From Clostridiaceae bacterium (GTDB lineage: Bacteria > Bacillota > Clostridia > Saccharofermentanales > DTU023): a DNA stretch of 64,000 nucleotides. Where the stretch lies: positions 568 through 64,567 of the forward strand of contig DUOO01000003.1 in assembly GCA_012838795.1 (NCBI GenBank), given 5' to 3'. Numbering within the stretch: position 1 is the first letter of the stretch; each line of letters starts with the position of its first letter. The notes under the pieces were generated by a model, which saw only the letters and a list, made by a program, of their open reading frames with translations, was not told the origin of the DNA and ran no database searches. Below are positions 25,796 to 52,956 of the stretch, piece after piece. Position numbers and translations under genes: made by a program.

Positions 25796-27013
25796 TTATT
25801 TTTCCAATTTGCGCAAGAGCTTATTAATCTTTGAGGTGGGTGAAATTAAACTGCTCATCGAGGCGTTGTGATTCATCGCATCAATTAACAAAGCAACAAA
25901 TTTGGTCATGTCAGCAGAAATATACCAAGGAGTATCCAGAACCTCTTGAGGGGTATAAATCAAGTTAGTCGCAATAACCCGGTCGATTAACCCTTTTGCA
26001 TAATACTCATTGAAAGAAGCAATACCTTCTGTAAATAATGCAAAAGTAACTGCAGCGAAAATGCGTTTTGCTCCTTTGGCCTTGAGTGATTTTGCCAGGT
26101 CTAACAGGGAATCACCAGACGAAATCATATCATCAACTATCAAAACATCATAACCTTCAACTGAATCGCCGAGAAATTCATGCGCAATAATTGGGTTCCT
26201 GCCATTGACAACGTTTGAATAGTCACGTCTTTTGTAGAAAGTTCCAAGCGGCAATCCAAGCATTGAAGCAAAGTACATTGAACGTTGGATAGCTCCTTCA
26301 TCCGGACTTACGATCATCATCGCTTCAGGCTTAATTACAATATCCGGCACAGACTTAATGAGAGCTTTCAAAATTTGATAAGTCGAAGGAATAGATTCAA
26401 AACTTGAAGTGGGTACAGCATTGGCGACTCTGTCATCATGTGCATCAAAAGTAATGAAATTACTGATACCGAGATCGAAAATATCTTCCAACATATATGC
26501 ACAATCGAGTGATTCTCGGGAGTTTCTGCGATGTTGTCTTCCTTCATATAAAAAAGGCATAATTACATTTATTCTGCGTGCTTTGCCGGAAGCTGCAAGA
26601 ATAATTCTTTTCAGATCCTGATAATGATCATCCGGGCTGAAATGATTAACTATACCTCGCATTTTATATGTGCAACTATAATTAGTAACATCACAGATAA
26701 TATATAGGTCATGACCGCGAACCGTTTGTCCGATTACACCTTTGCCTTCCCCGGATGAAAAACGAATAGTTTCGGCACTGATATTATAGTCATCCCGCAG
26801 AAAACCTGCATTGCTGATATCATCAGAAACATGATCTAGATATTCATGTCGTCTTTTGACCAAGTACTTATTTACTTGTTCACCAAACTCTTTTGCTCCG
26901 GTCAGGGAAATGATTCCTACCGGACCGTGTGCAGGCATGGGATTATCACCATATTGATCGTAACGATAATAGTTTATGCTATCGCGATCTATTGCTCGTT
27001 TAGTTTTGGCCAT
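25796..27013 (-). CDS. prs: Ribose-phosphate pyrophosphokinase (long clostridial type), catalytic loop intact
   Basis: RFSSGE, MPFLYEGRQ, TFDAHD, VSPDEG, FYKRRD, VDDMISSG. Confidence 0.92.
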   Translation of the reverse strand: MAKTKRAIDRDSINYYRYDQYGDNPMPAHGPVGIISLTGAKEFGEQVNKYLVKRRHEYLDHVSDDISNAGFLRDDYNISAETIRFSSGEGKGVIGQTVRGHDLYIICDVTNYSCTYKMRGIVNHFSPDDHYQDLKRIILAASGKARRINVIMPFLYEGRQHRRNSRESLDCAYMLEDIFDLGISNFITFDAHDDRVANAVPTSSFESIPSTYQILKALIKSVPDIVIKPEAMMIVSPDEGAIQRSMYFASMLGLPLGTFYKRRDYSNVVNGRNPIIAHEFLGDSVEGYDVLIVDDMISSGDSLLDLAKSLKAKGAKRIFAAVTFALFTEGIASFNEYYAKGLIDRVIATNLIYTPQEVLDTPWYISADMTKFVALLIDAMNHNASMSSLISPTSKINKLLRKLEK

Positions 27014-28256
27014 TGTTTTCTCCTTTGAATGAGTTCAATAATGAATGGATTCTTTCGGTCGGGTTAATCAATTTGGAAAGTGAAGCATCATGATTAATAC
27101 CGTCAATCAATAATGCCAGATATTTTGCCAGGTTAACATCGCAAAACCACTCAGTTTCTAACAGAGCGGGTGGTCGATAGGAGAGGTTTGTAGCAAATAT
27201 CTTATGAATTAAACCGTTGTCATATGCTTCATTAAATTTTTCAATACCTTCGGAAAACTGTGCGAATGAAACTGCTACAAATACTCTTCTCGCATTTAGA
27301 GAATTGAGTTGTTTAGCACATTCCAAGACAGTTTGGCCGGAATCAATCATGTCATCGACGATCAATACATCTTTTCCGGAGATATTATCACCGAGAAATT
27401 TCTTTTCTGCAGTTCTTTTAAGTTTTTGCATAGTATATTCGCTTTTATCTAATAATCTGGGATCATATTTACGATAAAAAATGCCTAACGGAACACGCAA
27501 GACGGAAGCATAGTAAATACAGCGACTGATCGCTGCTTCATCAGCACTGATGACCATGAAATGTTCTTTATCAATTTGAAGATCAGGACATTCACTGAGC
27601 AGAGCTTCAATTAATTGAAATGAAGTCGCAGCTGATTCAAAATTATAACGTGGAACTGCATTGGCGATGCGGTCATCATGAGCATCAAATGTAATAAAAT
27701 TTGAGATCCCCAATGCGAAAAGGCGATTTAACATAACAGCACAGTCAAGAGATTCTCTGGATTCACGCTGATAACGACGACCTTGATAAAGATAAGGCAT
27801 GACAACATTAATTCTTTTCGAAACACCGTGAGCTGCAGAAATCAGTCTGCATAAATCCTCAAAATGTTCATCGGGACTGAGCGAAACATTTTGATTAAAT
27901 CTTACATAACGCTGACCATAGTTCAAAACATCGGTAATGATAAACAGATCATGCCCGCGCACAGTGTCTAAAATAGTAGCTTGACCTTCACCTGAATTGA
28001 AACGTTTCAAGCTGACCGGTATCCGATATTCAGGTCTATAGTAACCAGCAAGTTGATTTTGTTCGGGATATTTCGCAACGGTTAATGCGCGACGATTATA
28101 TAAGTGGAAATTAACTGCATCAGAAAAAGATTGTTCCAATTGATGAGTAATAATTCCGACAGGGCCGATCGGCTGAATAATTCGTTCATCATAATTCCGA
28201 AGCACTAAAGCTTCGAAACGTGATACATGTTCTGGTTCGTTTAATTTATTGGTCAT
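27000..28256 (-). CDS. Ribose-phosphate pyrophosphokinase paralog with divergent catalytic loop
   Basis: RFNSGE, MPYLYQGRR, TFDAHD, IVDDMIDSG present, but ISADEAA and FYRKYD replace VSPDEGA and FYKRRD; overlaps the downstream prs by 14 nt. Confidence 0.88.
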   Translation of the reverse strand: MTNKLNEPEHVSRFEALVLRNYDERIIQPIGPVGIITHQLEQSFSDAVNFHLYNRRALTVAKYPEQNQLAGYYRPEYRIPVSLKRFNSGEGQATILDTVRGHDLFIITDVLNYGQRYVRFNQNVSLSPDEHFEDLCRLISAAHGVSKRINVVMPYLYQGRRYQRESRESLDCAVMLNRLFALGISNFITFDAHDDRIANAVPRYNFESAATSFQLIEALLSECPDLQIDKEHFMVISADEAAISRCIYYASVLRVPLGIFYRKYDPRLLDKSEYTMQKLKRTAEKKFLGDNISGKDVLIVDDMIDSGQTVLECAKQLNSLNARRVFVAVSFAQFSEGIEKFNEAYDNGLIHKIFATNLSYRPPALLETEWFCDVNLAKYLALLIDGINHDASLSKLINPTERIHSLLNSFKGENNGQN

Positions 28257-29101: not shown

Positions 29102-31555
29102 ATGTCCGAGCTTAGAATTATGAAATTTGTATTCCGACAAAGAATTATTGCTCTGCTGTTCAATGCCGAGCGCTACGGTCTGAAATTCAGCTGTTTATTA
29201 CTTTGTTTGATTTCGTATTTTACACGTGATTACTTAGTCCTATGTATGATTATTATTTTATTTTGTTCACTTTTTTTTATTATTGCTTATTCATATATTT
29301 CACAAAAAAATAAATTGTTTTATTTTGGGTTGTTGTGTTTATTGTTCATTCAAATGTGGCGAATTGCAGATGATATTTCTCAAACTCAAGATATCAGAAA
29401 GAATGTAGGAAAAACTGTCTACTTAGAACTTACGTCACAACAGACTCTTTTTCAAACAGATAAAGGAGGTGAATTCAAAATATTTCAAAGTCAAAATAGT
29501 ACTAAGTTTGCTGTTTGGTTAACGGATGAGCAAAGATACTGGCATAAAATTTCAGGTTACTTTAGACCGGAAGTTGCGCAAGAAGCCAGAAATCCAGGAG
29601 GTTTCAATCAAAAAGCCTATCTGGCGAATTACAATTGTCATGCTGTTTTAGATATGAAAGATTCAAGTAATTCAATTGATCAAATTATAATCAAAAAGCC
29701 ATTAATTGATCGAAATAAGCTGTTAATTGATTTTAGAAATTATCTAAGTTCAAGATTTGATGCGAAAACAGTAAATTTCCTGCTAAGTATATGTTTCGGT
29801 CAGACCGAGACATTAAATTCGGATCTTAAACAAGACTTTCAAAATCTTGGTTTGAGTCATCTGTTAGCAGTTTCAGGATTTCATTTTGACTTGTTTTTAA
29901 TACCTTTGTCGGAAGGGTTTAACCTGAAAAAACGGAATTTGAAAATTCAATTATTTATTGTTTTACCTTTGATCTTTATCTACAATTGGCTTTGTTCTTA
30001 TCCGATCGGGTTAATTAGAGCCAGTTTAATTTATAGCTTTGTCTTGTTAGGGAAGTATTTTGGCTTGGAGCTATCTCGAAAAAATATCTTATTAATAGTT
30101 ATGCAATTATTATTGCTGATGAACCCGTGGTTGATTTTTCAAAGTGCTTTTCAATTAAGTTTCTTGTCCGGTCTGACTATATATTATTATTTACCATATT
30201 TAAGAAAAATTAAAATTATGCAAAAGTTAAAACTTGTTCAGAGTATAACTTTATCATTATTGATTCAAATATTTATTTTACCTTTTTTAATTAAAAATTT
30301 TGGTGTTTGGCAATTAGGAGTTATCTTACTTGGCGGATTATTGAATTTCCCTTTGACAGTCATTTATTTAATAGGTCTATTTAGTTTTTATATATTTCTG
30401 CTATATAAGTTAATACAAAATGTATTGTTAATGAATTTTATATTATTTACATTGTTGGAAGAACCAATCGGAAAATTGTTTGAATTCATTAATTGGCTGA
30501 TTAGCAATGCATTGAATTTATTCTCGCGATTTGCGCGAGCTGATTTTTGGTTGAATTTACAAAATGATCAATCTTCATTATTCACATGGTTAGTTTTCGG
30601 AACCCTGATTTTAGGCATTGGTTTAACTTTTGCAAGGCTTTTTAACAGTCTTTTGATTGAGAAATACAGTGTATCTTTAACGATAAAACAGTTTTTGCCC
30701 GGATTTTTGGTTATATTATTATTACTTTTCAATATTTTTCGCCCGCAGCTCAATTGGAAAATCTGTTTTTTGGATGTCGGTCAGGGTGATTGTTGTTTAA
30801 TAATTACACCCGAGCGAGATTGTATTTTAATCGACGGAGGAATTCCCGGACAAGGTTATCGGACTATTATTCCTGCACTGAATCATTATGGAATTACCAA
30901 GGTTGATTACGCCATAATCAGTCATCTTGATTCGGATCATTATGGCGGAATTCTTGATTTGCTTGAAATAAGGCGAATAGAAGAACTTATTGTTCCGGAT
31001 TCAGATAACATCAATATGAACAAGATTGAAAGGAACAAGAGTATTATTAATAATCAATATTTATCTGATATATGTCAGAAAAATGGTGTAAAATATAAGA
31101 AAGTAAAACAATCAGATATTTTGATACTTGAGCCCTTGACCGCTGAATTTGAAATATTGACACCCGATCCGCTGCTGTTAAGGAACACACAAGATCAAAA
31201 TGCGTACAGTTTATGCTTTGTTTTGGAAATCGAGGATCTTAATGTGATGTTCACCGGAGATTTGAACAATCTGAGCGAACTAAATTTAATATCCAAATAT
31301 AAATTTGCTAAAATTGATATTCTTAAAGTTGCTCATCACGGTTCAAAATATTCCACGTCGGAGAAGTTTTTGAATGCTGTCAGGCCGGAACTGGCGATAA
31401 TTTCCGCAGGTAAAAACTGTTATGGACATCCTGCACCGGAATTGCTGGAAAGATTGACGCAACATAATATTAAGATCAAGCGTACAGATTTGAACGGTGC
31501 TATTGTGTTAGAATTGATAAATAATCAATGGCATCTGTCAACATATATTGAATAA
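29102..31555 (+). CDS. comEC: DNA internalization competence protein ComEC/Rec2
   Basis: RNPGGFN, GLSHLLAVSGFH, FQLSF, LDVGQGD, SHLDSDH, VAHHGS, YGHP, RTDLNG. Confidence 0.95.
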   Translation: MSELRIMKFVFRQRIIALLFNAERYGLKFSCLLLCLISYFTRDYLVLCMIIILFCSLFFIIAYSYISQKNKLFYFGLLCLLFIQMWRIADDISQTQDIRKNVGKTVYLELTSQQTLFQTDKGGEFKIFQSQNSTKFAVWLTDEQRYWHKISGYFRPEVAQEARNPGGFNQKAYLANYNCHAVLDMKDSSNSIDQIIIKKPLIDRNKLLIDFRNYLSSRFDAKTVNFLLSICFGQTETLNSDLKQDFQNLGLSHLLAVSGFHFDLFLIPLSEGFNLKKRNLKIQLFIVLPLIFIYNWLCSYPIGLIRASLIYSFVLLGKYFGLELSRKNILLIVMQLLLLMNPWLIFQSAFQLSFLSGLTIYYYLPYLRKIKIMQKLKLVQSITLSLLIQIFILPFLIKNFGVWQLGVILLGGLLNFPLTVIYLIGLFSFYIFLLYKLIQNVLLMNFILFTLLEEPIGKLFEFINWLISNALNLFSRFARADFWLNLQNDQSSLFTWLVFGTLILGIGLTFARLFNSLLIEKYSVSLTIKQFLPGFLVILLLLFNIFRPQLNWKICFLDVGQGDCCLIITPERDCILIDGGIPGQGYRTIIPALNHYGITKVDYAIISHLDSDHYGGILDLLEIRRIEELIVPDSDNINMNKIERNKSIINNQYLSDICQKNGVKYKKVKQSDILILEPLTAEFEILTPDPLLLRNTQDQNAYSLCFVLEIEDLNVMFTGDLNNLSELNLISKYKFAKIDILKVAHHGSKYSTSEKFLNAVRPELAIISAGKNCYGHPAPELLERLTQHNIKIKRTDLNGAIVLELINNQWHLSTYIE

Positions 31556-39747: not shown

Positions 39748-40395
39748 ATGAAAAATAAAATTTCTTATATTCCGGAAACTTGGGATCATGCAAATTCATA
39801 TATAATTCATGGAGCAAAAGATTATTTGATTGATCCTTCAATTGCTTATGATCAAAATATTGCAGATAACCTAAACGGTATCATTGCAACCCACTTTCAT
39901 TATGATCACATAAGTCATGTTGAAGAATGGCGTAAAAAAACCGGTTTAGACTTTATGATGCCGGAAGGTGATATTCCGTTTCTTACAGATCCCGAAGCCA
40001 ATTGTTCGATAGATTATGGTAAACCGACTCACTATTCTGCTGCCGATTTTTATTATACGGATCAGGAAAAAATTCAGTTAGAACCTGATTTAAGGTTAAT
40101 TGTTTATCATACACCGGGACATACGCCCGGATGCTCCTGTATATTATTGCAGAATAAACAAGATGATGTTTATCAACCTTTGGCATTGATTTCAGGTGAT
40201 ACATTGTTTGCCAACAGTATCGGACGTACTGATCTCAAAGGGGGAAATCCTGCTGATATGGAAAAATCGCTTGACCGGTTAACGAAGATATTACAAAACT
40301 TACCACAAGATTTGCCGGTTTTGCCGGGTCACGGTTCACCGTTTTTAATTAGAGATGCTTTCCGATTTAATCCTTTTATCAGACAATTTCTGTAG
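39748..40395 (+). CDS. MBL-fold metallo-hydrolase (glyoxalase II-like)
   Basis: THFHYDH, HTPGHTPG, SGDTLF, GRTDL, PGHG. Confidence 0.92.
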   Translation: MKNKISYIPETWDHANSYIIHGAKDYLIDPSIAYDQNIADNLNGIIATHFHYDHISHVEEWRKKTGLDFMMPEGDIPFLTDPEANCSIDYGKPTHYSAADFYYTDQEKIQLEPDLRLIVYHTPGHTPGCSCILLQNKQDDVYQPLALISGDTLFANSIGRTDLKGGNPADMEKSLDRLTKILQNLPQDLPVLPGHGSPFLIRDAFRFNPFIRQFL

Positions 40396-40638
40396 ATAAT
40401 CCGGTCTTATGTGATTGAGTTGCTTTTAGGTATAACAAATACTAATGTTCTGATTTTGCTCACAGTATTAATCTGAAATCAAATGTCATCTACCGTAAAA
40501 TATAAGAGAATTGCGGATAGTTTGTATTTTTTGTGTATTTTGTTTTTAATTTCTAATTTTCTTGTACCTGATTCGGATTTTTATTGAATAAGTGTTATTA
40601 TATGCAATGTTAATTTATTAGGATGATTTGGAGGGCTT

Positions 40639-41685
40639 ATGGATAAGTTATTATCTGAATTACAAGCGATTGAAGATAAATTTCGAGCTGACATGAGTTC
40701 TATTGTTAATCAACAAGAGCTGGAAGACATCAGGATCAAATTATTAGGTAAAAAAGGCGAAATAACATCTATTATGAAAAATATGGGACGCCTTTCCAAT
40801 GAAGATAAGCCTAAATTAGGCCAGGCAGCCAACAGAATTCGTCAATTTGTTGAACAAAAAATTACAGAAAAACAAGCTGAATTAAATGTCAAAGCTGAAC
40901 AAGCGAAGATTGCAAGTGAAATGCTTGATATCAGTATGCCGGGCAAAGTTGTAAAAGTTGGCGGCAGACATCCTCTGACTTTAATGTCGGATGAAATCTG
41001 CGATACCTTTATCGGTCTGGGTTATACAATTGCTGAAGGACCGGACGTAGAGCTGGATCTTTATAATTTTGAATTGCTCCGTTTACCCAAAGGCCATCCC
41101 GCACGTGATGAACAAGACACATTTTATCTTGATTATGAAAATGGTGTTTTATTAAGATCACAAACTTCTCCGGTGCAAATCAGAGTAATGAATCAACAAA
41201 AACCTCCTATTTATATAGTTTGTCCCGGCAGAGTATATCGTTCAGATACTGTTGACGCTACTCATTCACCGATTTTTCATCAGATTGAAGGTTTAGCAGT
41301 TGATGAAAATATCAGTATGACTGACTTAGTTGCTGCATTAGAGCTTTTTGCCAGAAGATTATTCGGCAAAGAGACCAGAATTCGTTTGCGACCCCATCAT
41401 TTCCCGTTTACTGAACCAAGCTGTGAAGTGGACATTTCTTGTTGGACTTGCAGTGGTCATGATCCGAATTGCAAAACTTGTCGCGGTGAAGGATTTATCG
41501 AAATTTTAGGTGGCGGTATGGTTCATCCGGAAGTTTTAGAAAACTGTGGAATTGACTCAAATAAATATAGCGGCTTTGCTTTCGGTATAGGTGTCGAACG
41601 TGTTGCCATGGGGCGATATGATGTAACCGACATCAGAAATTTCTATGAAAATGATTTGCGTTTCTTAGAACAATTCAGTAAGTGA
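40639..41685 (+). CDS. pheS: Phenylalanine--tRNA ligase alpha subunit
   Basis: HPARDEQDTF, RSQTSPVQ, DATHSP, FPFTEPS, GFAFGIGVER. Confidence 0.98.
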   Translation: MDKLLSELQAIEDKFRADMSSIVNQQELEDIRIKLLGKKGEITSIMKNMGRLSNEDKPKLGQAANRIRQFVEQKITEKQAELNVKAEQAKIASEMLDISMPGKVVKVGGRHPLTLMSDEICDTFIGLGYTIAEGPDVELDLYNFELLRLPKGHPARDEQDTFYLDYENGVLLRSQTSPVQIRVMNQQKPPIYIVCPGRVYRSDTVDATHSPIFHQIEGLAVDENISMTDLVAALELFARRLFGKETRIRLRPHHFPFTEPSCEVDISCWTCSGHDPNCKTCRGEGFIEILGGGMVHPEVLENCGIDSNKYSGFAFGIGVERVAMGRYDVTDIRNFYENDLRFLEQFSK

Positions 41686-41692
41686 GGTAAAA

Positions 41693-44155
41693 GTGATGAA
41701 AGCTTCTCTGGAATGGATTAAAGATTTTACAGAATATCAGGGAGATATACAAACTTTTGTTGATGGAATGACTTTATCCGGCACCAAAGTCGAATCTTTG
41801 GAATATGAAGGTGCTGACCTGAAAAAACTTGTCGTGGGTCATGTTTTAGAAAAAAATCAACATCCAAATGCGGACCGTCTTTCAGTTTGTCAAGTTGATG
41901 TCGGTACAGAGATTGTGCAAATCGTATGTGGAGCACCGAATGTAGCTGCCGGACAAAAAGTTATAGTGGCTTTGCCGGGAGCGGTCTTGGCAGGCGGTTT
42001 CAAAATAAAAAAAGCAAAAATGCGCGGTGAAGAGTCTAACGGTATGATCTGTTCGATTGATGAATTAGGTTTTTCGGTTCATGAATTTCCCGATGCAGTA
42101 TCCGACGGCATTTATGTATTACCGGACGATTCACCGGTAGGAAACGATGCCTTGGATGTTATCGGTATCGGTCAGGAAATCATTGAATTTGAGATAACTT
42201 CCAATCGTCCGGATTGTTTGGCAGTCGAAGGTTTGGCTAGAGAGACCTCGGTTGTTTTTGATACGAAGTTTACTGCTTTAGATAAAAAACCGAATAATTT
42301 TTCTGATTTAAAATCTGAAGACATTGCCTCAATTGTGGTTGAAGCGCCCGATTTATGTTCAGCTTTTATCGGTAGAATTGTCACAGATGTAAAAATTGAG
42401 CAGTCGCCGATTTGGATGCAAAAAAGATTACGAGCTGCAGGCATGAGACCGATCAACAATATCGTTGATATAACGAACTTTGTCATGTTGAGCTTAGGCC
42501 AGCCGATGCATGCTTATGACTTGGATTTTCTAACCGATCATTCTATTATTGTTCGTCGCGCCGAAGATCAGGAAATGATGACTTTGCTTGATGGAACTGA
42601 AATCAAAATGAACTCGGATAATTTGGTAATTGCTGATACTGCGGGAGCGGTCGGCTTAGCGGGTGTGATGGGCGCTGAGAATTCAGAAGTCCGGGATTCT
42701 ACAAAAGCAATTCTGTTTGAAGCAGCAAATTTTTCCAAAACTTCAGTTCGCAAAACAGCCAAAGAATATAATTTGCGTTCAGAGGCATCATTGCGCTTTG
42801 AAAAAGGTTTGCCGGCACAAAATGCTCAACGCGCAATGGATTATGCATGTTATTTAATTGAAGAATTAAATTGTGGAAAAGTTGCGTCTACTGAAATTAC
42901 GGTTGCCGAGAAGTTCCCCGTATTACACAAGATTGAATACACTGCACAAGGCATTAACAAATTGACCGGGGTAGATTTAAGTATTGAACAAATTAATCAG
43001 ATTCTGAATAAACTTGAATTGGACATTGAACCGACTGAAAACTCAGATATTTATGTTGCAACAATTCCTTATTTCAGGGGTGATCTTAAAATTGAAGCTG
43101 ATTTAGCGGAAGAAGTTGCCAGAATATATGGTTATGACAAAATTGAAAGTCGTTTCAGCAAAGGCAACACACCGACTTTAGGCGGTCGCAATGCAACTCA
43201 ACTTGATGTTGAAAAAATCCGCCGTGTATTAGAAGCTTGCGGAGCATATGAAGCATACACTTATTCATTTGTTTCACCGACCGATGTTGTCAGACTGGGT
43301 TTAGATTCTGAACATGCTTTGAGTCAACAATTAACGATTCTTAATCCGTTGGGTGAAGAGTATTCAAAAATGCGAACTACAATGCTGCCCAGTCTGTTGA
43401 GAGTTATTGAACATAATTTGTCTCATGGTAATTTGAGTGGTGTTTTATATGAATTAGGAAAAACTTATCATCCATTAAATACCTTACCTGATTATGGTTT
43501 GACTGCTGCATATCAAGATGAACATTTGCCTGATGAACGAGAACATGTTACTGTTGCTCTCTTTGATCAAAACTTAAAAGATAGTTCTCAAGGCTATTTT
43601 ATACTAAAAGGAATTATGGAAGAGCTTTTCCGTCATTTAGGCATAGTTGAGTTTCAAGTTTCCAGGGTTGGTCCGGATCATCCCTATTATCATCCGGGAC
43701 AGACAGCATCGGTTTATTTGCCTGATTACACCGACCCGATCGGTTTAATAGGAACAATTCATCCGGGCTCTGCAAAGGAATTTGCTGTTACGCCGAACAC
43801 TTATTTTTTAGATTTGGAATTACATCCCTTGTTGAAAGCCAAACGTGAAAAAATTCTTTTCAAGGCATTACCTAAATATCCTGCAATTACCAGAGATTTG
43901 TCATTTGTTATGCCAAGAGAAAATCTGGTTTCAGAAGTTGAAGCAGAAATTGTCGGTTTGGCAGGTTCTCTCTTGGAATCAATTCGAATTTTCGATGTTT
44001 ACCAAGGTCAAGGAATTGCCGAAGATAAAAAATCAGTAGCGTTTTCGTTAGTATTCAGAGATGCTGAACGCACTTTAAGTGACCGGGAAATCAATCCGAT
44101 CATGCAGAAAATAATTGTTAATATGGCGAAAAGAGATATTCTGTTAAGAGCATAA
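41693..44155 (+). CDS. pheT: Phenylalanine--tRNA ligase beta subunit
   Basis: HPNADRL, CGAPN, TSNRPD, VDITN, RFEKG, EEVARIYGY, RDLSF. Confidence 0.98.
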   Translation: MMKASLEWIKDFTEYQGDIQTFVDGMTLSGTKVESLEYEGADLKKLVVGHVLEKNQHPNADRLSVCQVDVGTEIVQIVCGAPNVAAGQKVIVALPGAVLAGGFKIKKAKMRGEESNGMICSIDELGFSVHEFPDAVSDGIYVLPDDSPVGNDALDVIGIGQEIIEFEITSNRPDCLAVEGLARETSVVFDTKFTALDKKPNNFSDLKSEDIASIVVEAPDLCSAFIGRIVTDVKIEQSPIWMQKRLRAAGMRPINNIVDITNFVMLSLGQPMHAYDLDFLTDHSIIVRRAEDQEMMTLLDGTEIKMNSDNLVIADTAGAVGLAGVMGAENSEVRDSTKAILFEAANFSKTSVRKTAKEYNLRSEASLRFEKGLPAQNAQRAMDYACYLIEELNCGKVASTEITVAEKFPVLHKIEYTAQGINKLTGVDLSIEQINQILNKLELDIEPTENSDIYVATIPYFRGDLKIEADLAEEVARIYGYDKIESRFSKGNTPTLGGRNATQLDVEKIRRVLEACGAYEAYTYSFVSPTDVVRLGLDSEHALSQQLTILNPLGEEYSKMRTTMLPSLLRVIEHNLSHGNLSGVLYELGKTYHPLNTLPDYGLTAAYQDEHLPDEREHVTVALFDQNLKDSSQGYFILKGIMEELFRHLGIVEFQVSRVGPDHPYYHPGQTASVYLPDYTDPIGLIGTIHPGSAKEFAVTPNTYFLDLELHPLLKAKREKILFKALPKYPAITRDLSFVMPRENLVSEVEAEIVGLAGSLLESIRIFDVYQGQGIAEDKKSVAFSLVFRDAERTLSDREINPIMQKIIVNMAKRDILLRA

Positions 44156-44211
44156 ATTAAAAAGATAAAAATAATTTTAATTGATATTTATAGAATATGA
44201 CCCATAATAAG

Positions 44212-44241
44212 TAGCTCAGCAAAATCAGTTTTGCTGAGCTA
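44212..44241 (+). terminator. Probable intrinsic terminator after pheT
   Basis: TAGCTCAGCAAAA-TCAG-TTTTGCTGAGCTA, 13-bp perfect stem. Confidence 0.7.
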
Positions 44242-44286
44242 TATTAATTTGGAGTTTGTTTCATCATACTTCATTTTCAGAAGTTC

Positions 44287-44508
44287 TGTGTCAAAAAAGC
44301 CGTTTCTGCGGATAAAAATCCACAAGATCGTAAATTTTGACATGTTTGACTTGGTAATGTGCCAAAAAAGCCGGTTGTGTGGATTGCAATCCGCAGGACT
44401 GTAATTTCTGACACTGCAGCACCAATATCCAAAGGATCCTGTGCCAAAAAAGCCGTTTCTGCGGATCCGAGCCTACAGTGCACCCGCAGGCTCGTAGTTT
44501 TTGACACG
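44287..44508. repeat. Array of three diverged palindromic units (58, 58 and 69 bp) of the same family as 25414-25682
   Basis: TGTGYCAAAAAAGCCG at 44287, 44358 and 44440, each followed by N4-TGYGGAT-loop-AYCCRCARG-N2-YGTA-..TTYTGACA. Confidence 0.9.
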
Positions 44509-44804
44509 TCTATTTAATACTAATATTTTAAAACTCAGTTTTTTTAATAATTGTCAAATATATTGGTTTTTCTCAAAATAATGAAGAGTTTTCTTGCAAA
44601 TAATTATTATAATATCAAGTGAAAGTATCAGATTATTTTTCGTTTTCAATTTATATCAATTTCTGAATAGTATTTGATTAATACGGACTGATTATATCTT
44701 TGATTATTACTTACATTTATCTGAAATATTGTTTTTATCTTTAGTTTATTTCGAAGAATTAAGAACTGAATAATAAGCACTTTATGAAATTAGGAGGGAT
44801 TATT

Positions 44805-45101
44805 ATGTTAAGTCTGGAAGCTATTTTGTGTGTGCCTTTATGCATGACCATCTTTACTCAAGCGATTTTTTACTTGAAACCGATCGAATTAAGAATCGAG
44901 CAACAAGCAAAAATTATTGCAACAGATCGAATTGCTGAACCGAAGAATCAACCTATATATAAATTTAATTCGGAAAATCAGGTGATTAATCTACAAGTTA
45001 ATCCGCAAAAAGTAAAAGAAATATTATCCCTGGGTTTAGATATTAAAAACAGCTTATGGGACAGAGATAAGATATATCCAGAACAAAATTTGAATAATTG
45101 A
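44805..45101 (+). CDS. Small TadE-like (Flp/Tad minor pilin-like) protein
   Basis: MLSLEAILCVPLCM hydrophobic N-terminus with Glu5 and Pro; AGGAGG SD 7 nt before ATG 44805 (ORF track starts at 44784). Confidence 0.55.
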   Translation: MLSLEAILCVPLCMTIFTQAIFYLKPIELRIEQQAKIIATDRIAEPKNQPIYKFNSENQVINLQVNPQKVKEILSLGLDIKNSLWDRDKIYPEQNLNN

Positions 45102-45246
45102 TAAGTTATCAAACAAGAAAACAAATAAGAAGAACTGCCCTCAAGACCTTAAGTCAGTACATTTAATAAGGGATTGACGATACTAACCGAAAGAGGAAAA
45201 GAGGACGCTTTATCTGTTTTTATAAACTATGATGCGAGGTATAATT

Positions 45247-46743
45247 ATGAACTCGGATAATTTGAATGGTTTGAAGTCATTTATAATCAAACGGCTGAAT
45301 TTACTGAAAAATAAAATCAGAGCCGAAGAAGCCAACACCAGCTTGTTTTTTTTGATATTACTGCCAATTACAGTTATGGTTTTGTTTTTAACATTTGAAA
45401 ATGTCCAGTTAAGAAGAGAAGAACTTGATTTTGTGCGTAGTTGTGAAACTAGTTTAGATCTTGCTCTGGCGGATTATGATCGACAATTATGGCAGGAGTT
45501 CGGTTTATGGGGAGTAGAAAGCAATTTATTAAATCAGCATAAGAATGAAATGGAGCAGAATTTTGTTTCGGATAGACACGAGGTGGAAATTGAAATTTCC
45601 GGGATACATAATCTTGAAGATACCGAGCAATTAAGAAAACAAATTTTACGACATATGAGTGTAAGATCTCCTTTTTTAGCAATTGAAGAAATCATCAAAA
45701 GGATTGGTAATGTTGGTATTATGAGTGAGCAACTCAATAATAGTTCAGTTTTAGCGGAGATTACTTCAAAAAGTAATTTGGTCGATCCTGAATTCATAAT
45801 CGCCAACCCGGATTCCGCTGCAGGTGATTTGGCAAGTTTGGATGTGGAAATTAAACCGGAAGATCAAGAGACATTGGAGGAAATGTCCAATAGCGAACTT
45901 AATACTTTATCCGAAAGTTCTTTGGAAATACTGGCGAAATTAATTGAAGAAGCTAAGACGATGATTGTCCCGATGTATGAATCAACAGGAAATCCGGTTC
46001 CCGCTAATCCTCTGGCACCTGGTTCATTACAGAATATTACAAATTTTTTCGATCAATTTTTATTAAATTATGATATTCCGATAATCAGTCGATTGCAAAT
46101 TCAGGAATATATGTTGAATTACTATCCCATGCAAGTTACGGAATTAGAAATGTCAGGAAATAAAACTCCGCTGCAAACACCTGATGGCAGGTTACATTCA
46201 GACTTACATGCATCAGGTAGAAAGAATGAAGTTGAACAGATTATTTTTAATACAAATGATCCCGATTCTGCAGCATCTAAAGCTAAATGGGGCATTAGAG
46301 GAATCTGCTTTACGTATCACCTGATTGATAATTTTACCGATGAAGCCAAACAGTCAGTTTATTTGTTGCAAGCAACGGGGATTAGTACTGCGATAGCAGT
46401 AGTCAGTATAGGACATATTGTGATTGATCCTCAAACATTGGTATATACAATAACTTTAATAGATTCATTATCGCAAGCTTTTGCGGATAGTGATCAGTTG
46501 CTTGCGGGGGAAGAACTTACTTTTCCGATCGGCGATTTAGAGATTAATATAAATTATCGAGATTTAATGAGAGTATTTACCTTGTTCAAAAATGAAGACA
46601 ATTTGCTGTCAGGAATTAATAATATGCGGAAAAAGACCGTACCGGGAAATTTCATTACTGCGATTAAATTAGATGGATGTTTTCGTAATAGTTCGATTTG
46701 TCTGAGCAGGGAATATTCAGACTTTATTATTAAAAAACCGTAA
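45247..46743 (+). CDS. Tad-associated pilin-like protein (DUF5702-like / TadG-like)
   Basis: Basic leader then hydrophobic helix; LADYDRQLWQEFGLWG, QEYMLNY, EVEQII, YRDLMRVF motifs recalled from clostridial Tad loci. Confidence 0.6.
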   Translation: MNSDNLNGLKSFIIKRLNLLKNKIRAEEANTSLFFLILLPITVMVLFLTFENVQLRREELDFVRSCETSLDLALADYDRQLWQEFGLWGVESNLLNQHKNEMEQNFVSDRHEVEIEISGIHNLEDTEQLRKQILRHMSVRSPFLAIEEIIKRIGNVGIMSEQLNNSSVLAEITSKSNLVDPEFIIANPDSAAGDLASLDVEIKPEDQETLEEMSNSELNTLSESSLEILAKLIEEAKTMIVPMYESTGNPVPANPLAPGSLQNITNFFDQFLLNYDIPIISRLQIQEYMLNYYPMQVTELEMSGNKTPLQTPDGRLHSDLHASGRKNEVEQIIFNTNDPDSAASKAKWGIRGICFTYHLIDNFTDEAKQSVYLLQATGISTAIAVVSIGHIVIDPQTLVYTITLIDSLSQAFADSDQLLAGEELTFPIGDLEININYRDLMRVFTLFKNEDNLLSGINNMRKKTVPGNFITAIKLDGCFRNSSICLSREYSDFIIKKP

Positions 46744-46798
46744 AAAATGTACTGCTGTTAAACAACAGTCAAATTAATCGAAAAGAGAAATTCGATAT

Positions 46799-47848
46799 AT
46801 GCTTAAAAAGAATAATCAAAAGTATATGTTTAATAAAAGCAACACTAAACTCCGAGAAGAAAAAGGCAGTATAGTTTTTGAAGCAGCTATCATTATGCCT
46901 TTAATGATTTTCATCTGTTATTTTATGTTGAGTGTGATACTTACAGCGCAACATGAAATCCTTATGCGTTATGCTCTGGATCAAACAGCAAAAGAATTAT
47001 CGTTATTAATTCCGTTGGCGGAAGGGATATATTCAGAAATTGATCACAGTACAATTGATGAATTAATCAACTCAATTATTCCGGAATCTGCTTTTGAATT
47101 CAGACAAGCAGCAGGCGATTTAGCCGGTTCGATATTTCTGCAAAACTTTTTACAAGCACGTATTGAAAAATGGCTGATTGACGGTGCGGATCGATTAGGA
47201 GTTAAAATTCCGTCTGATTACAGACAAATAATTTTGACTTCAATTTCTGATCACAGTTTGCAATTAAAGTTGATATTTCATATTAAAACTCCTTGGACAA
47301 CCACTGAAAGAAGCACAGTCAGTTACGTTCCGGTCTGGACAAAATATGACAGTAAGTATCAAATAAAAAATGAGAAAATCAATGAAGATGAAGCAGCGGA
47401 CAACATTTGGTCAGAACATAACTTCACTCGAGGAAAATATTTCAGAGAATTGTATAACGCTAATTTACCTTTCAATTATCCGACTATTTGTCGTTATCAA
47501 GCAGGAGAGATTTTGGCAGTAAGAAGTCTTGATTTAACTGCTCCGAGTTACAATTCAGCTGAAACGGTAAAGTTGCAGATCGAACAAGAGATCAACAATT
47601 TGGCTAACTTTTCAGGTTCGGAGCGTGATACCGGGTTATCTGTCGGCAAAATAACTTCAGATGACATTTCTGCAAGGAAATTGATAGTTGTTATACCGGG
47701 TAACTCAGATTATGATTTAAACTCTCAATTGTTTAACAACATTGAAACATTTGCTTCAAATTCTGATGTTAATATCCAAATTGATATCAGAGGCAATAGC
47801 TATCGCTATTTACCAAAATCGGAGTCAGATAATTCTGATGAAAAATGA
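46799..47848 (+). CDS. TadE family pilin with C-terminal CdiA-toxin-like (PD-(D/E)xK) nuclease-fold domain
   Basis: Prepilin site KG^SIVFEAAIIMP; C-terminal W..NFTRG...NLPFNYPTI...RSLDLTAPSY...INNLANF...ISARKLIVVIP. Confidence 0.72.
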   Translation: MLKKNNQKYMFNKSNTKLREEKGSIVFEAAIIMPLMIFICYFMLSVILTAQHEILMRYALDQTAKELSLLIPLAEGIYSEIDHSTIDELINSIIPESAFEFRQAAGDLAGSIFLQNFLQARIEKWLIDGADRLGVKIPSDYRQIILTSISDHSLQLKLIFHIKTPWTTTERSTVSYVPVWTKYDSKYQIKNEKINEDEAADNIWSEHNFTRGKYFRELYNANLPFNYPTICRYQAGEILAVRSLDLTAPSYNSAETVKLQIEQEINNLANFSGSERDTGLSVGKITSDDISARKLIVVIPGNSDYDLNSQLFNNIETFASNSDVNIQIDIRGNSYRYLPKSESDNSDEK

Positions 47849-47872
47849 TATTGAGCAAGTTGTTATATTAAA

Positions 47873-47901
47873 TTGCTTAAAAAAAGCTGATAAGCTATCA
47901 T
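47873..47901 (+). promoter_or_regulatory. Putative sigma-A promoter of secA
   Basis: TTGCTT-17 bp-TATCAT. Confidence 0.4.
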
Positions 47902-48005
47902 TTAATATGGTTTTGACTAAAATTAATAAATATAACCAAGGAATCAGAACTGACAAGTTAAGTGAAACGAACAAATAAATCATGGATATAGGAAGACACT
48001 AATAT

Positions 48006-50846
<2,841 letters not shown>

Positions 50847-50904
50847 TAATCATTCAATAACAGCAACTTGATTTTTAATTTAATAAAGTTGAAAAAACAG
50901 TTTG

Positions 50905-52956
50905 TCAATACAGCTTAACGACAAAAGTTTCATAAGGACGGAGTTCACTGTTTTTAATAAAGTCTTGCTGATTGCGATCAGGATAGTTGGAAATCAGAAT
51001 CGTGTGATCGAGAGATTCCGGAACTTTAATATTGTAATCTTCGGCTAACCTTATCAAGTGCACAGCATTGAAACCGATCACGTTCAATATTTCATCAGTC
51101 AAATTGGCTTCAACATAAAACGCATGATAGTCATCGTACCGAAAATAACGCAGGATACTGGTGTTATGTTTGCTGAGTATTTCCAGTTTACCGTAAACTA
51201 AAGTGGCATAATGAGTACGTAAAGATGCTAATGCACGATAATAATTGAGAATAGAATGTGAATCATTCCCTTGTTCGGCTGCACTCATTTTCGGATCGGC
51301 AAAACAGTCAATCCAGGTTGTTTTGTTTTGTGAAAAATCTCCGTTTAGGTATTCATTGTCCCATGCTATCGGTACTCTGGCATGATCACGACTCCCGCGA
51401 ATAATACGATCAAGTGATCTGGAATCTTCTGCAAAATTTAATTGTTCATTTAATTTTTCATATCGCAATTGACTTTCAATATCTCTGATTTGATTAATAC
51501 TATGGAATGGTGCATTAATTTGACCTAATTCTTGTCCCTGATATAACATGATCGTACCCTTACCCGTTAATTGTAAAGTTGCGATCAGTTTAGCGATTTG
51601 ATTACGGTAAAGATTATGATTTTGCATTCTGCTGACAATTCTGGGATGATTGGGATCTTCGCAGAACAATACCGGCCAAAATGAATTATCTGCCGATAAC
51701 TGCATTTTTAACCAAACATTGCTCAGATAGTAGAGCGATAAATAGTTTGATTGAAAACGACGCTGTCCGGGCTCTTCAAATTGATTATAGTTCAATCCGA
51801 GATCACTGCGTTTTGTAGCATCACCGCTGATCAGACAGGTATAGTTGCCATGCATTCTAAGACAATCGGCAATGATTAAAAAGTCAGGTGAATGTTGTTT
51901 AAGAGCGAGATAGATTTCGTTTAACCAATCCAACAATTTGAACTGATAGATATAGTTTTCAATCCCGGAAACACCTGTTAAGACTGCCAAGGACTTACTG
52001 CCTTCGGGATAGGCTTCATTTTTGGCAATGAGTGAAGCCGATTCAAGAAACAGACCGTCGATACCAAAATTCTTCCAATAAGTCATAACCTTTATCATTT
52101 CTCTTCGAACAAAATCCATATCCCAGTTCAAGTCTAGTTGCTTAGAACTCTTAAGATGCAAATAATAATATTTTGTGGAGCGTTGATAGAGCCATGCTGA
52201 ATCACCATAGAAAGATTGCCAATTGTTCGGTCCGTCATTTACTATATAATAATTTTTATTTTTTGCAATTTGATTCCTTTGGTTATCATCATGTTTATTT
52301 TCCAAAGTTCTTTCTGAGATACTGTCAAAATTCTCCTTAGACATTTCAAACCAAGCATGTTGATCGGAAGTTTGGCTTAACGGAAGAGTAAGAATTATTC
52401 TTAAGTTGTTTTGGTGGCAAAGTGCAATCAATTCTTTAAGATCTTTTTTCGATCCGAACAAGGGATTGATCTCATAAAAATCTTTGATATCGTAGCCTGC
52501 ATCATACATCGGTGAATCGAAAATCGGACTTAATAAAATCGTATCGACATTTAAAGACAATATATACTCGAATCGTTCAATAATTCCCTGAAGATCTCCG
52601 ATTCCGTCATGATTGGCATCTTGAAAGCTGGGTACAAAAATCTGATAAATAATGCTGCTTTTCCACCAGTTATGACTGAAAGAAATTTTATCAGGATAGA
52701 CTTCTTGACGCATCTCATATTGATTGAGTTTTTCAATGATCCAGTTTGCGATTCGGCGGTCGAACATTATTCGAGTGAACCGCTGAATAATTGTGTAAGA
52801 TTTCAATTTTATTGAACGCAAATAAAACTTGTTGAAATCCTCAATAGTTTTACCTGAATAATAAGCGATAAAAGTTAAGAGCTCATAACCGATAACTGAT
52901 TCCAGCACATCTCCCAATGTCGAGTTTATTGTCCATTTCTCTCTTCTTTGCTCCAT
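50905..52956 (-). CDS. GH13 oligo-1,6-glucosidase-like protein with N-terminal extension; catalytic motifs degenerate
   Basis: WWKSSIIYQIF, SFQDANHDGIGDLQGI, DAGYDI, QLDLNW, YQGQELG, SRDHARVP; ATG 52956 after GAGG (ORF track starts at 52962). Confidence 0.85.
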   Translation of the reverse strand: MEQRREKWTINSTLGDVLESVIGYELLTFIAYYSGKTIEDFNKFYLRSIKLKSYTIIQRFTRIMFDRRIANWIIEKLNQYEMRQEVYPDKISFSHNWWKSSIIYQIFVPSFQDANHDGIGDLQGIIERFEYILSLNVDTILLSPIFDSPMYDAGYDIKDFYEINPLFGSKKDLKELIALCHQNNLRIILTLPLSQTSDQHAWFEMSKENFDSISERTLENKHDDNQRNQIAKNKNYYIVNDGPNNWQSFYGDSAWLYQRSTKYYYLHLKSSKQLDLNWDMDFVRREMIKVMTYWKNFGIDGLFLESASLIAKNEAYPEGSKSLAVLTGVSGIENYIYQFKLLDWLNEIYLALKQHSPDFLIIADCLRMHGNYTCLISGDATKRSDLGLNYNQFEEPGQRRFQSNYLSLYYLSNVWLKMQLSADNSFWPVLFCEDPNHPRIVSRMQNHNLYRNQIAKLIATLQLTGKGTIMLYQGQELGQINAPFHSINQIRDIESQLRYEKLNEQLNFAEDSRSLDRIIRGSRDHARVPIAWDNEYLNGDFSQNKTTWIDCFADPKMSAAEQGNDSHSILNYYRALASLRTHYATLVYGKLEILSKHNTSILRYFRYDDYHAFYVEANLTDEILNVIGFNAVHLIRLAEDYNIKVPESLDHTILISNYPDRNQQDFIKNSELRPYETFVVKLY

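Follow-up and report, generated by a model that had tools for sequence, protein, structure and literature searches.

Tad pilus tips built of minor pilins that carry a modular domain are known (PMC12075869), and modular pilins have been surveyed among IPR012902 proteins only; the words 'Tad' and 'nuclease' do not occur in that survey (PMC8179133). The toxins TA271/EC869 and YPIII are Zn-dependent DNases, whose active site is described as E177, D198, S209 and K211 (PMC9086364). Here we analyse a gene that combines features of these systems, located in a 64,000-nucleotide stretch of a Clostridiaceae bacterium genome (GenBank assembly GCA_012838795.1, contig DUOO01000003.1; the whole stretch is referred to as the window). 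Our results support the view that in its product a pilin-type protein is joined to a domain with homology to the PD-(D/E)xK DNase of the C-terminal toxin regions of EC869 and YPIII CdiA (CdiA-CT). This protein is probably the third member of a conserved Clostridia-type Tad (Flp) pseudopilin triplet, and it would present the nuclease-fold module as a binding module without hydrolytic activity.

Residues 220-328 of the protein matched the Pfam family PF21111 (CDI_toxin_EC869_like) with an E-value of 1.6e-7 and 32 bits against a cut-off of 27, and a six-frame search of the genome returned this family at 34.2 bits as the single match. PF21111 was also matched by 21 of 23 family members. A phmmer search of the PDB with the single protein gave no match, and the CdiA-CT chains were reached by family profiles only. 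The profile of the 23-member alignment identified 4zqu_A from Y. pseudotuberculosis (4.9e-6) and 4g6u_A from E. coli EC869 (5.7e-6), and these CdiA-CT toxins were the only convincing PDB families; a module-only profile of 58 members matched 4g6u_A with an E-value of 2.9e-9 and 4zqu_A with 1.2e-8. An AlphaFold model calculated from the 23-member alignment had a mean predicted local distance difference test score (pLDDT) of 75, with values of 80-94 in the C-terminal module. Foldseek searches with the model returned 4zqu_A (E 1e-6, target template modelling score 0.72) and 4g6u_A (E 5e-6, target score 0.45) as the sole matches at E <= 0.001. In VIA-align, the EC869 and Yersinia CdiA-CT DNases scored Z 15.2 and 13.2, the next match being at 7.7; the Z 15.2 match superimposes 132 residues with a root-mean-square deviation (rmsd) of 2.3 Å (model residues 196-332 on chain residues 157-297). 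The tail of this comparison, at Z 5-6.6, contained the PD-(D/E)xK nucleases FokI, LlaBIII, AspBHI, the Avs4 nuclease domain and CdiA-CT E479. A preliminary description of the window had pointed out the resemblance to EC869-type CdiA-CT and had proposed a structural comparison with these nucleases; the resemblance was borne out by the Pfam match, the PDB profiles and both structure searches, and all of the C-terminal motifs quoted there were found in the translation.

The catalytic residues of the DNases were then compared with the corresponding positions of the family. The offset between chain index and published numbering was set by the unique D-x10-S-x-K spacing. The HMMER alignments place C231, A240 and R242 of the window copy at D198, S209 and K211, respectively. 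E177 corresponds to about R216, with E217 adjacent to it, a placement that follows from the VIA-align ranges (model 196 = chain 157, 213 = 174) and holds at range level, not as a residue-level superposition. We counted the residues at these positions in 80 sequences, namely the window copy and 79 related loci from records titled Saccharofermentanales, Mageeibacillus or Fastidiosipila, and in 170 representatives. Position 216 is R in 74 of the 80 sequences, and position 217 is E or D in 51. At the D198 position the 80 sequences have A (55), S (15), C (9) and D (1), and the representatives have A (85), S (50), C (15), D (14), N (4) and Q (1). The S209 position (240) is occupied by S in 49 and A in 26 of the 80, and the K211 position (242) by K in 53 and R in 27. 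Of the 14 representatives with D, just P0105 and P0115 have K at the K211 position, each together with K at position 217; R, S, V, L, T or A replaces the catalytic lysine in the remaining 12. An evident full catalytic set was found in none of these sequences and representatives. The loss of the catalytic residues is thus mosaic across the family: most members keep S-x-K without the aspartate, and the few with the aspartate are mostly without the lysine.

The catalytic tetrad is therefore not conserved, and an alternative invariant set is present instead: W204, R211, G212, L223, P224, P228, S243, D245, P300 and N302 are identical in all 80 sequences. The mean pairwise identity is 38.7% in the C-terminal module versus 21.9% for residues 61-190, and this module also contains all 15 columns with a conservation of at least 95%. 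Since the module is the best-conserved part of the protein, we regard it as functional rather than decaying. Judging from the alignments, the pattern is the signature of a domain that has probably kept a function but not its ancestral chemistry. The preliminary description had read the expected catalytic E, D and S-x-K as R, C and A-x-R, which is correct for the window copy (for E at range level), but A-x-R turned out to be specific to the window's clade. The alignment of homologs that it proposed revealed five conserved basic positions and no full catalytic set, here or family-wide; the loss is not uniform, however, as the counts for S and K show.

The N-terminal part of the protein has the features of a prepilin, as claimed earlier: the translation of the 349-residue open reading frame (ORF) begins with a basic leader, followed by K-G23 / S-I-V-F-E28 and a hydrophobic stretch with P34. 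The true start may be M10, because an identical database copy (P0001) has 340 residues. Position 23 (-1) is G in 61, A in 13, S in 1 and C in 1 of the 80 sequences, with 4 gaps, and position 28 (+5) is E in 69 and D in 7, again with 4 gaps. The class III signal is thus kept, with G/A/S/C at -1 in 76/80 and E/D at +5 in 76/80, the remainder being gaps. The model of the pilin module has a long N-terminal helix (residues 22-75), more helices and a three-stranded sheet (residues 143-178). In VIA-align, model residues 40-180 matched the S. sanguinis minor pilin PilB (7b7p_A) with Z 7.7 and rmsd 2.8 over 91 aligned residues, and further pilin matches were PilV (Z 5.5), EpsI/EpsJ (Z 5.4) and PilJ (Z 5.2); because unrelated folds score alike, the pilin fold is to be taken as consistent with the model. 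The module at residues 196-332 is joined to the pilin module (residues 22-178) via a low-confidence linker (residues 182-194), so that the model appears to reproduce the layout of a modular pilin, with a pilin module, a separately folded module and a linker.

The connection to Tad came from outside the window. In a complete genome of another Clostridia family (G422, locus L129), genes for TadA, TadB, TadC, Flp1_like, TadE (206 aa) and a DUF5702 protein (734 aa) are followed by a family member of 367 aa, which matches TadE at 24.8 bits versus the cut-off of 22.9 and PF21111 at 59.7 bits; an A24 peptidase gene and a gene for a DUF6382/FHA protein lie 3' of it. The genome of the window (2.09 Mb, 96% complete) contains exactly one T2SSE ATPase, on contig C55, whose best match is the TadA family and which is adjoined by a fused T2SSF protein, a Flp1_like pilin and an FHA protein. 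One A24 prepilin peptidase is encoded on another contig, C15. The Tad link is therefore real but indirect, via the G422 operon and the single Tad-type machine of the genome.

The two genes upstream of the pseudopilin gene belong to the same conserved set. The small protein begins with M-L-S-L-E-A..V-P-L, has no leader peptide and matches no Pfam family; ORFs of 86-99 aa with a M-[AL]-[FS]-[ST]-[LI]-E-A start are present at this position in most of the related loci listed (e.g. L003-L013). We also observed that this protein of ~90 aa resembles TadE in its hydrophobic head, which has Glu at +5 or +6, and is without Gly at -1. As it has neither a leader nor this Gly, it would need no prepilin peptidase. 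The 504-residue protein had no Pfam match in the window copy, and its nearest clusters in the ESM Atlas are DUF5702 (0.99); its orthologs in two genomes (G103 and G111) pass the cut-off of PF18960 (DUF5702). The N-termini of this protein and of 45 homologs read G-x-x-S-L-x-F..L-P, with no Glu at +5. In this they are reminiscent of tip subunits in other type IV filaments, which lack Glu5, and by their N-termini DUF5702 proteins look like large Glu5-less pseudopilins. The AlphaFold model of the DUF5702 protein (pLDDT 79.9) found no match in the PDB by Foldseek at E <= 0.001, and no mention of DUF5702 was found in a literature search. A complex prediction for the DUF5702 protein and the pseudopilin reached a score of 0.57, with the best control at 0.00; the runs agreed in at least 67% of contacts, and the partner pLDDT was at least 69. 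Of 80 solved complexes, 58 attained the mark used, as against 2 of 110 mismatched pairs; at scores of 0.60 or below, it was attained by only 7 of the 80 solved complexes plus both passing mismatches, and the prediction lends weak support to a contact between the two proteins.

In an even sample of 150 Clostridia genomes, DUF5702 was present in 44, including many Tad operons, and the PF21111 module in 25; outside the window's order there were 20 module matches, each with a DUF5702 match 0.5-2 kb upstream of it. The order (small gene)-DUF5702-pseudopilin-secA is kept in most of the 79 genome loci, with pheS-pheT upstream in loci where these genes were matched, about a third of the 79, and the same gene order was found in the long ones among the 27 metagenome loci, in a distant rumen/digester clade. 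The pseudopilin is present in 286/301 genomes of the order and in 183/185 of the good genomes, and among 121 genomes sampled from this order, 117 had a TadA ortholog. The Tad machine and the triplet thus both belong to the core gene set of the order and are encoded at separate places. At E <= 0.001 the whole family comprises 1947 sequence clusters, and 1226 remain at E <= 1e-10; its relatives in databases carry the PF21111 tag but are named hypothetical.

Some further observations concern the relatives of the triplet. In two Tad loci of other Clostridia that contain DUF5702, L127 (10819-11712) and L128 (10596-11534), the pseudopilin at the same position ends in another C-terminal module, whose duplicated motif G-x-x-Y-H-x4-C ... 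C-x-x-C is Zn-ribbon-like. This alternative module matched no Pfam family and had no meaningful PDB sequence match. Such a difference is as expected for exchangeable tip modules. In distant clades, the interval upstream of secA additionally contains a gene for a small membrane protein and an ORF of 106-123 aa that by eye resembles TrpR/YerC-type regulators. The pheS-pheT-triplet-secA block (window 40639-50846) is kept across the whole order and in the distant rumen/digester clade.

Positions of the pseudopilin gene, its parts and other features in the window
Feature	Position	Strand	Basis or remark
Bimodular putative Tad pseudopilin gene	46799..47848	+	349 aa ORF; translation, Pfam, family alignment
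Leader, residues 1-23 ending K-G23, presumed prepilin-peptidase site	46799..46867	+	Alternative start M10 at 46826; cleavage inferred
Pilin module, residues 24-190	46868..47368	+	AlphaFold model, VIA-align matches
C-terminal PD-(D/E)xK-fold module, residues 196-340	47384..47818	+	Pfam, PDB profile, Foldseek, VIA-align
R216-E217, about the place of catalytic E177 of EC869 CdiA-CT	47444..47449	+	Aligned ranges only, range level
C231, place of catalytic D198	47489..47491	+	HMMER alignments
A240-V-R242-S243-L-D245, place of S209-x-K211-S-I-D214	47516..47533	+	HMMER alignments
Spacer of 157 bp before secA	47849..48005	.	ORF list, terminator scan
secA	48006..50846		Starts 157 bp 3' of the pseudopilin gene
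Small TadE-like protein, triplet gene 1	44784..45101	+	105 aa listed; conserved start probably M8 at 44805, giving ~98 aa
DUF5702-type large pseudopilin-like protein, 504 aa, triplet gene 2	45229..46743	+	ESM Atlas, PF18960 matches of orthologs
comEC, intact	29102..31555		TIGR00361, 224 bits vs cut-off 190

In the window, pheS and pheT (40639..44155) lie upstream of the triplet, and the 105-aa and 504-aa ORFs follow one another between pheT and the pseudopilin gene. The spacer between the pseudopilin gene and secA contains no immunity-sized ORF, and no terminator-like site was found in it on the + strand. The preliminary description was accurate in stating that no immunity gene follows, that secA is next and that an intact comEC is in the same window. 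Profile scans of the window proteins revealed no tadA/B/C or flp in the 64 kb. A search with Rfam at gathering thresholds over 40000..52000 gave zero matches, and an NCBIfam scan of the three triplet proteins gave nothing meaningful. After pheT, there is a strong terminator-like hairpin with 14 pairs (44211-44242) and a 28-nt repeat in three copies (44286, 44357 and 44439; spacing 71 and 82 nt), which has internal palindromes and no Rfam match. Elsewhere in the window, at 25796-28256 on the - strand, two adjacent overlapping genes for proteins of 405 and 418 aa both match ribose-phosphate pyrophosphokinase domains, and they look like a tandem pair coding for phosphoribosyl pyrophosphate synthetase-like proteins.

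Taken as a pseudopilin with a binding module, the protein could act as follows. The A24 peptidase encoded on contig C15 would cut it after G23, and the protein would assemble with the small TadE-like and DUF5702 proteins into a complex that primes the Flp filament or forms its tip; the TadA/TadBC/Flp1/FHA locus on contig C55 would build the filament itself. The nuclease-fold module would then be displayed, presumably at the tip, as a binding module that does not hydrolyse its ligand. The former metal site (E, D) now consists of R216, an A/S/C residue and K/R242, and it would therefore hold a ligand rather than cut it; phosphate-bearing polymers, among them DNA, would be the most plausible class of ligand. 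As to its origin, the module most likely goes back to a polymorphic-toxin nuclease, from which it was recruited before being domesticated.

Several observations weigh against this interpretation. The pilin-fold scores of Z 5-7.7 are within the range of chance arrangements. The Pfam TadE family (PF07811) gave 16.3 bits for the window copy and 20.4 in the six-frame search, both below the cut-off of 22.9, and TadE was detected at E <= 0.01 in just 4 of the 23 family members. No tadA, tadBC or flp was found near the triplet, up to 10 kb on each side, in any of the 79 genome loci or 27 metagenome loci. The earlier assignment as a Tad minor pilin thus retains the family member in a canonical Tad operon and the single Tad machine of the genome, but it finds no tad genes in the window and no TadE match above threshold. 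A location at the tip is questioned by a report on Micrococcus luteus, in which TadE and TadF went undetected in sheared pili and a basal role was favoured (PMC4322843). As to the module, S-x-K is kept in most relatives, and the loss of the canonical residues, as read from the alignments, may leave room for catalysis by alternative invariant residues. The clustering of the invariant residues in the old cleft would follow from the fold topology, and the remote matches examined were the best 150 of the 1947 sequence clusters.

The preliminary description had proposed a more specific function, namely that the degenerate nuclease module is a DNA receptor on a Tad pilus, whose retraction hands the DNA to ComEA/ComEC for transformation without Com pili. 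We consider this unlikely. DNA is the ancestral substrate of the fold, the EC869 and YPIII CdiA-CT being described as Zn-dependent DNases (PMC9086364), and basic residues are conserved at positions 211, 216, 242, 293 and 336. These five positions could form a local patch; however, the module as a whole is acidic (net charge -7, isoelectric point 4.64), and 58 relatives have a median isoelectric point of 5.8 and a mean net charge of -2.1. Besides ComEC, the genome encodes a ComEA-like protein (TIGR00426, 64.9 bits versus 53.1), DprA (E 7.7e-76) and a ComF-like protein below the cut-off, but comEC, dprA and comEA are kept by many non-transformable bacteria. Tad-dependent transformation has reportedly been found in Liberibacter crescens, and M. 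luteus, with the same gene logic, is described as needing its Tad genes for transformation (PMC4322843). In the window genome no N_methyl pilin passes the cut-off and the T2SSE ATPase is the only one, and N_methyl pilins are absent from 47/65 genomes of the window's own family. The proposed co-occurrence with com genes is thus found in this genome, and the absence of N_methyl pilins in it and in most of its family, but N_methyl pilins are present in 18/65 genomes of the family and in 5/5 tested carriers from other Clostridia families. Because of these five carriers, we conclude that the module did not evolve as a substitute for a Com pilus, and the co-occurrence of the pseudopilin with Tad is uninformative, since both are near-universal in the order. 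It is likewise doubtful that the Tad pilus serves as the DNA-uptake pilus of an order mostly without Com-type pili, with the domesticated contact-dependent inhibition (CDI) nuclease fold as its receptor.

Three other explanations would change the role of the module or of the whole protein. The module could still be an enzyme, a nuclease or phosphodiesterase anchored to the pilus or the membrane, with a rearranged site (S-x-K, D245, N302, R211/R216), which might process or scavenge extracellular nucleic acid like the surface nucleases of competent bacteria. PD-(D/E)xK enzymes are known for migrating catalytic residues, S243, D245 and N302 are conserved as an active site would be, and S and K are present in 49/80 and 53/80 sequences at the S-x-K positions. 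One CdiA-CT of the same fold is also described with His in place of Lys (PMC9086364). However, the metal-site aspartate is missing in 79/80 sequences, the E177 helix position is mostly Arg, the Lys position varies (R, H, T, S and V among the 170 representatives) and in the window copy the three aligned catalytic residues are replaced by C, A and R, all of which makes an enzyme improbable. We give even less credence to a protein outside the pilus, a membrane-anchored extracytoplasmic housekeeping protein of the envelope or of secretion, which would explain the fixed place before secA. The conserved order from pheS to secA in the genome and metagenome loci, the near-universal presence in the order and the lack of a terminator-like site before secA agree with it, but the same two-gene module occurs inside canonical Tad operons of other Clostridia, the G/xxxxE motif is conserved and Tad is equally universal in the order. 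An active toxin delivered to neighbour cells by the pilus, like contact-dependent killing by the Kil Tad system, was suggested by the homology of the module to a CDI toxin and by the described part of Tad-like pili in contact killing in Myxococcus (PMC12075869). No immunity-sized gene accompanies the pseudopilin here, nor is there an immunity-like ORF in the spacers of two distant loci (L088 and L049), and the lack of an immunity gene speaks against a toxin cassette; together with the degenerate catalytic residues and the fact that the gene is single-copy, syntenic and part of the core genome, unlike a polymorphic cassette, this led us to reject pilus-delivered toxicity. A pseudopilin that displays a non-hydrolytic binding module therefore remains the explanation that we favour.

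Additional observations were made on com genes and pili in these genomes. A ComF-family gene (L002:13727-14476, + strand, on contig C55) matches TIGR00201 at 90.5 bits, below the cut-off; it lies 3' of metK and ~1.6 kb from the divergent Tad locus, an adjacency that may be due to chance. Four genomes of the order (G027, G230, G237 and G258) encode PilB-type (566-588 aa) and PilT-type ATPases besides the Tad ATPase, whereas the window genome has the Tad ATPase only. The distribution of N_methyl pilins within the window's family is patchy (18/65).

A literature search outside subscription journals and bioRxiv supplements found no paper on a nuclease-fold Tad pseudopilin; a paper listed for PF21111 (IPR033799) deals with CDI ionophore toxins. 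A pilus subunit with a degenerate toxin-type nuclease fold is widespread in Clostridia and undescribed in the literature searched. The Tad pili of Clostridia are almost unstudied, and the large family defined here reveals in them a pseudopilin with a toxin-derived nuclease fold, in which a different set of strictly conserved residues has taken the place of the catalytic ones. The module of ~150 aa provides a concrete, purifiable handle on what these pili recognise, and DUF5702 and the small leaderless TadE-like protein are assigned to the same Tad pseudopilin set. If DNA were the ligand, this would explain a possible transformability of bacteria that have ComEC, ComEA and DprA without a Com pilus, and the module would then be the first DNA receptor to be identified for a Tad pilus, a toxin domain turned competence factor. 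If the ligand is not DNA, the protein would still clearly exemplify the domestication of a polymorphic-toxin domain into a pilus adhesin.

Among described systems, ComP of Neisseria is a DNA-receptor pilin. The same function is attributed to ComZ of Thermus (PMC8179133), and compared with these two the module described here is acidic overall. The genome logic resembles that of M. luteus, with ComEA, ComEC and DprA and with Tad as the only type IV filament (PMC4322843). The tip complexes of the TadE/TadF/TadG and Kil minor pilins (PMC12075869) share with our locus a triplet of minor pilin-like genes, one of them large, the class III signal G/xxxxE and a variable module for which exposure at the tip is proposed; the Tad operon of G422 likewise encodes a family member after flp. 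In those complexes the C-terminal modular domain is carried by TadG, whereas the module here belongs to the mid-sized subunit; our large subunit, a DUF5702 protein, has no solved relative, and the triplet is unlinked from the machinery, between pheT and secA, in monoderm Clostridia. The S. sanguinis modular pilins PilB and PilC have a vWA and a lectin module, respectively (PMC8179133). PilB was the best match to the pilin fold, but the signal of our protein is of the TadE type and not N_methyl (IPR012902), and its module has a nuclease fold.

The closest relatives of the module itself are the CdiA-CT of EC869 (o11/TA271, 4G6U) and YPIII (4ZQU), which have the same fold and detectable sequence homology to it. 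Both share the motifs L-P-x-N and S-x-[KR]-S-[ILM]-D as well as a hydrophobic strand that terminates in I-P. In contrast to these toxins, the module is grafted on a pseudopilin instead of forming the C-terminus of a CdiA two-partner-secretion toxin, it is without a CdiI immunity gene downstream, and it is part of a vertically inherited core gene, not of a polymorphic cassette.

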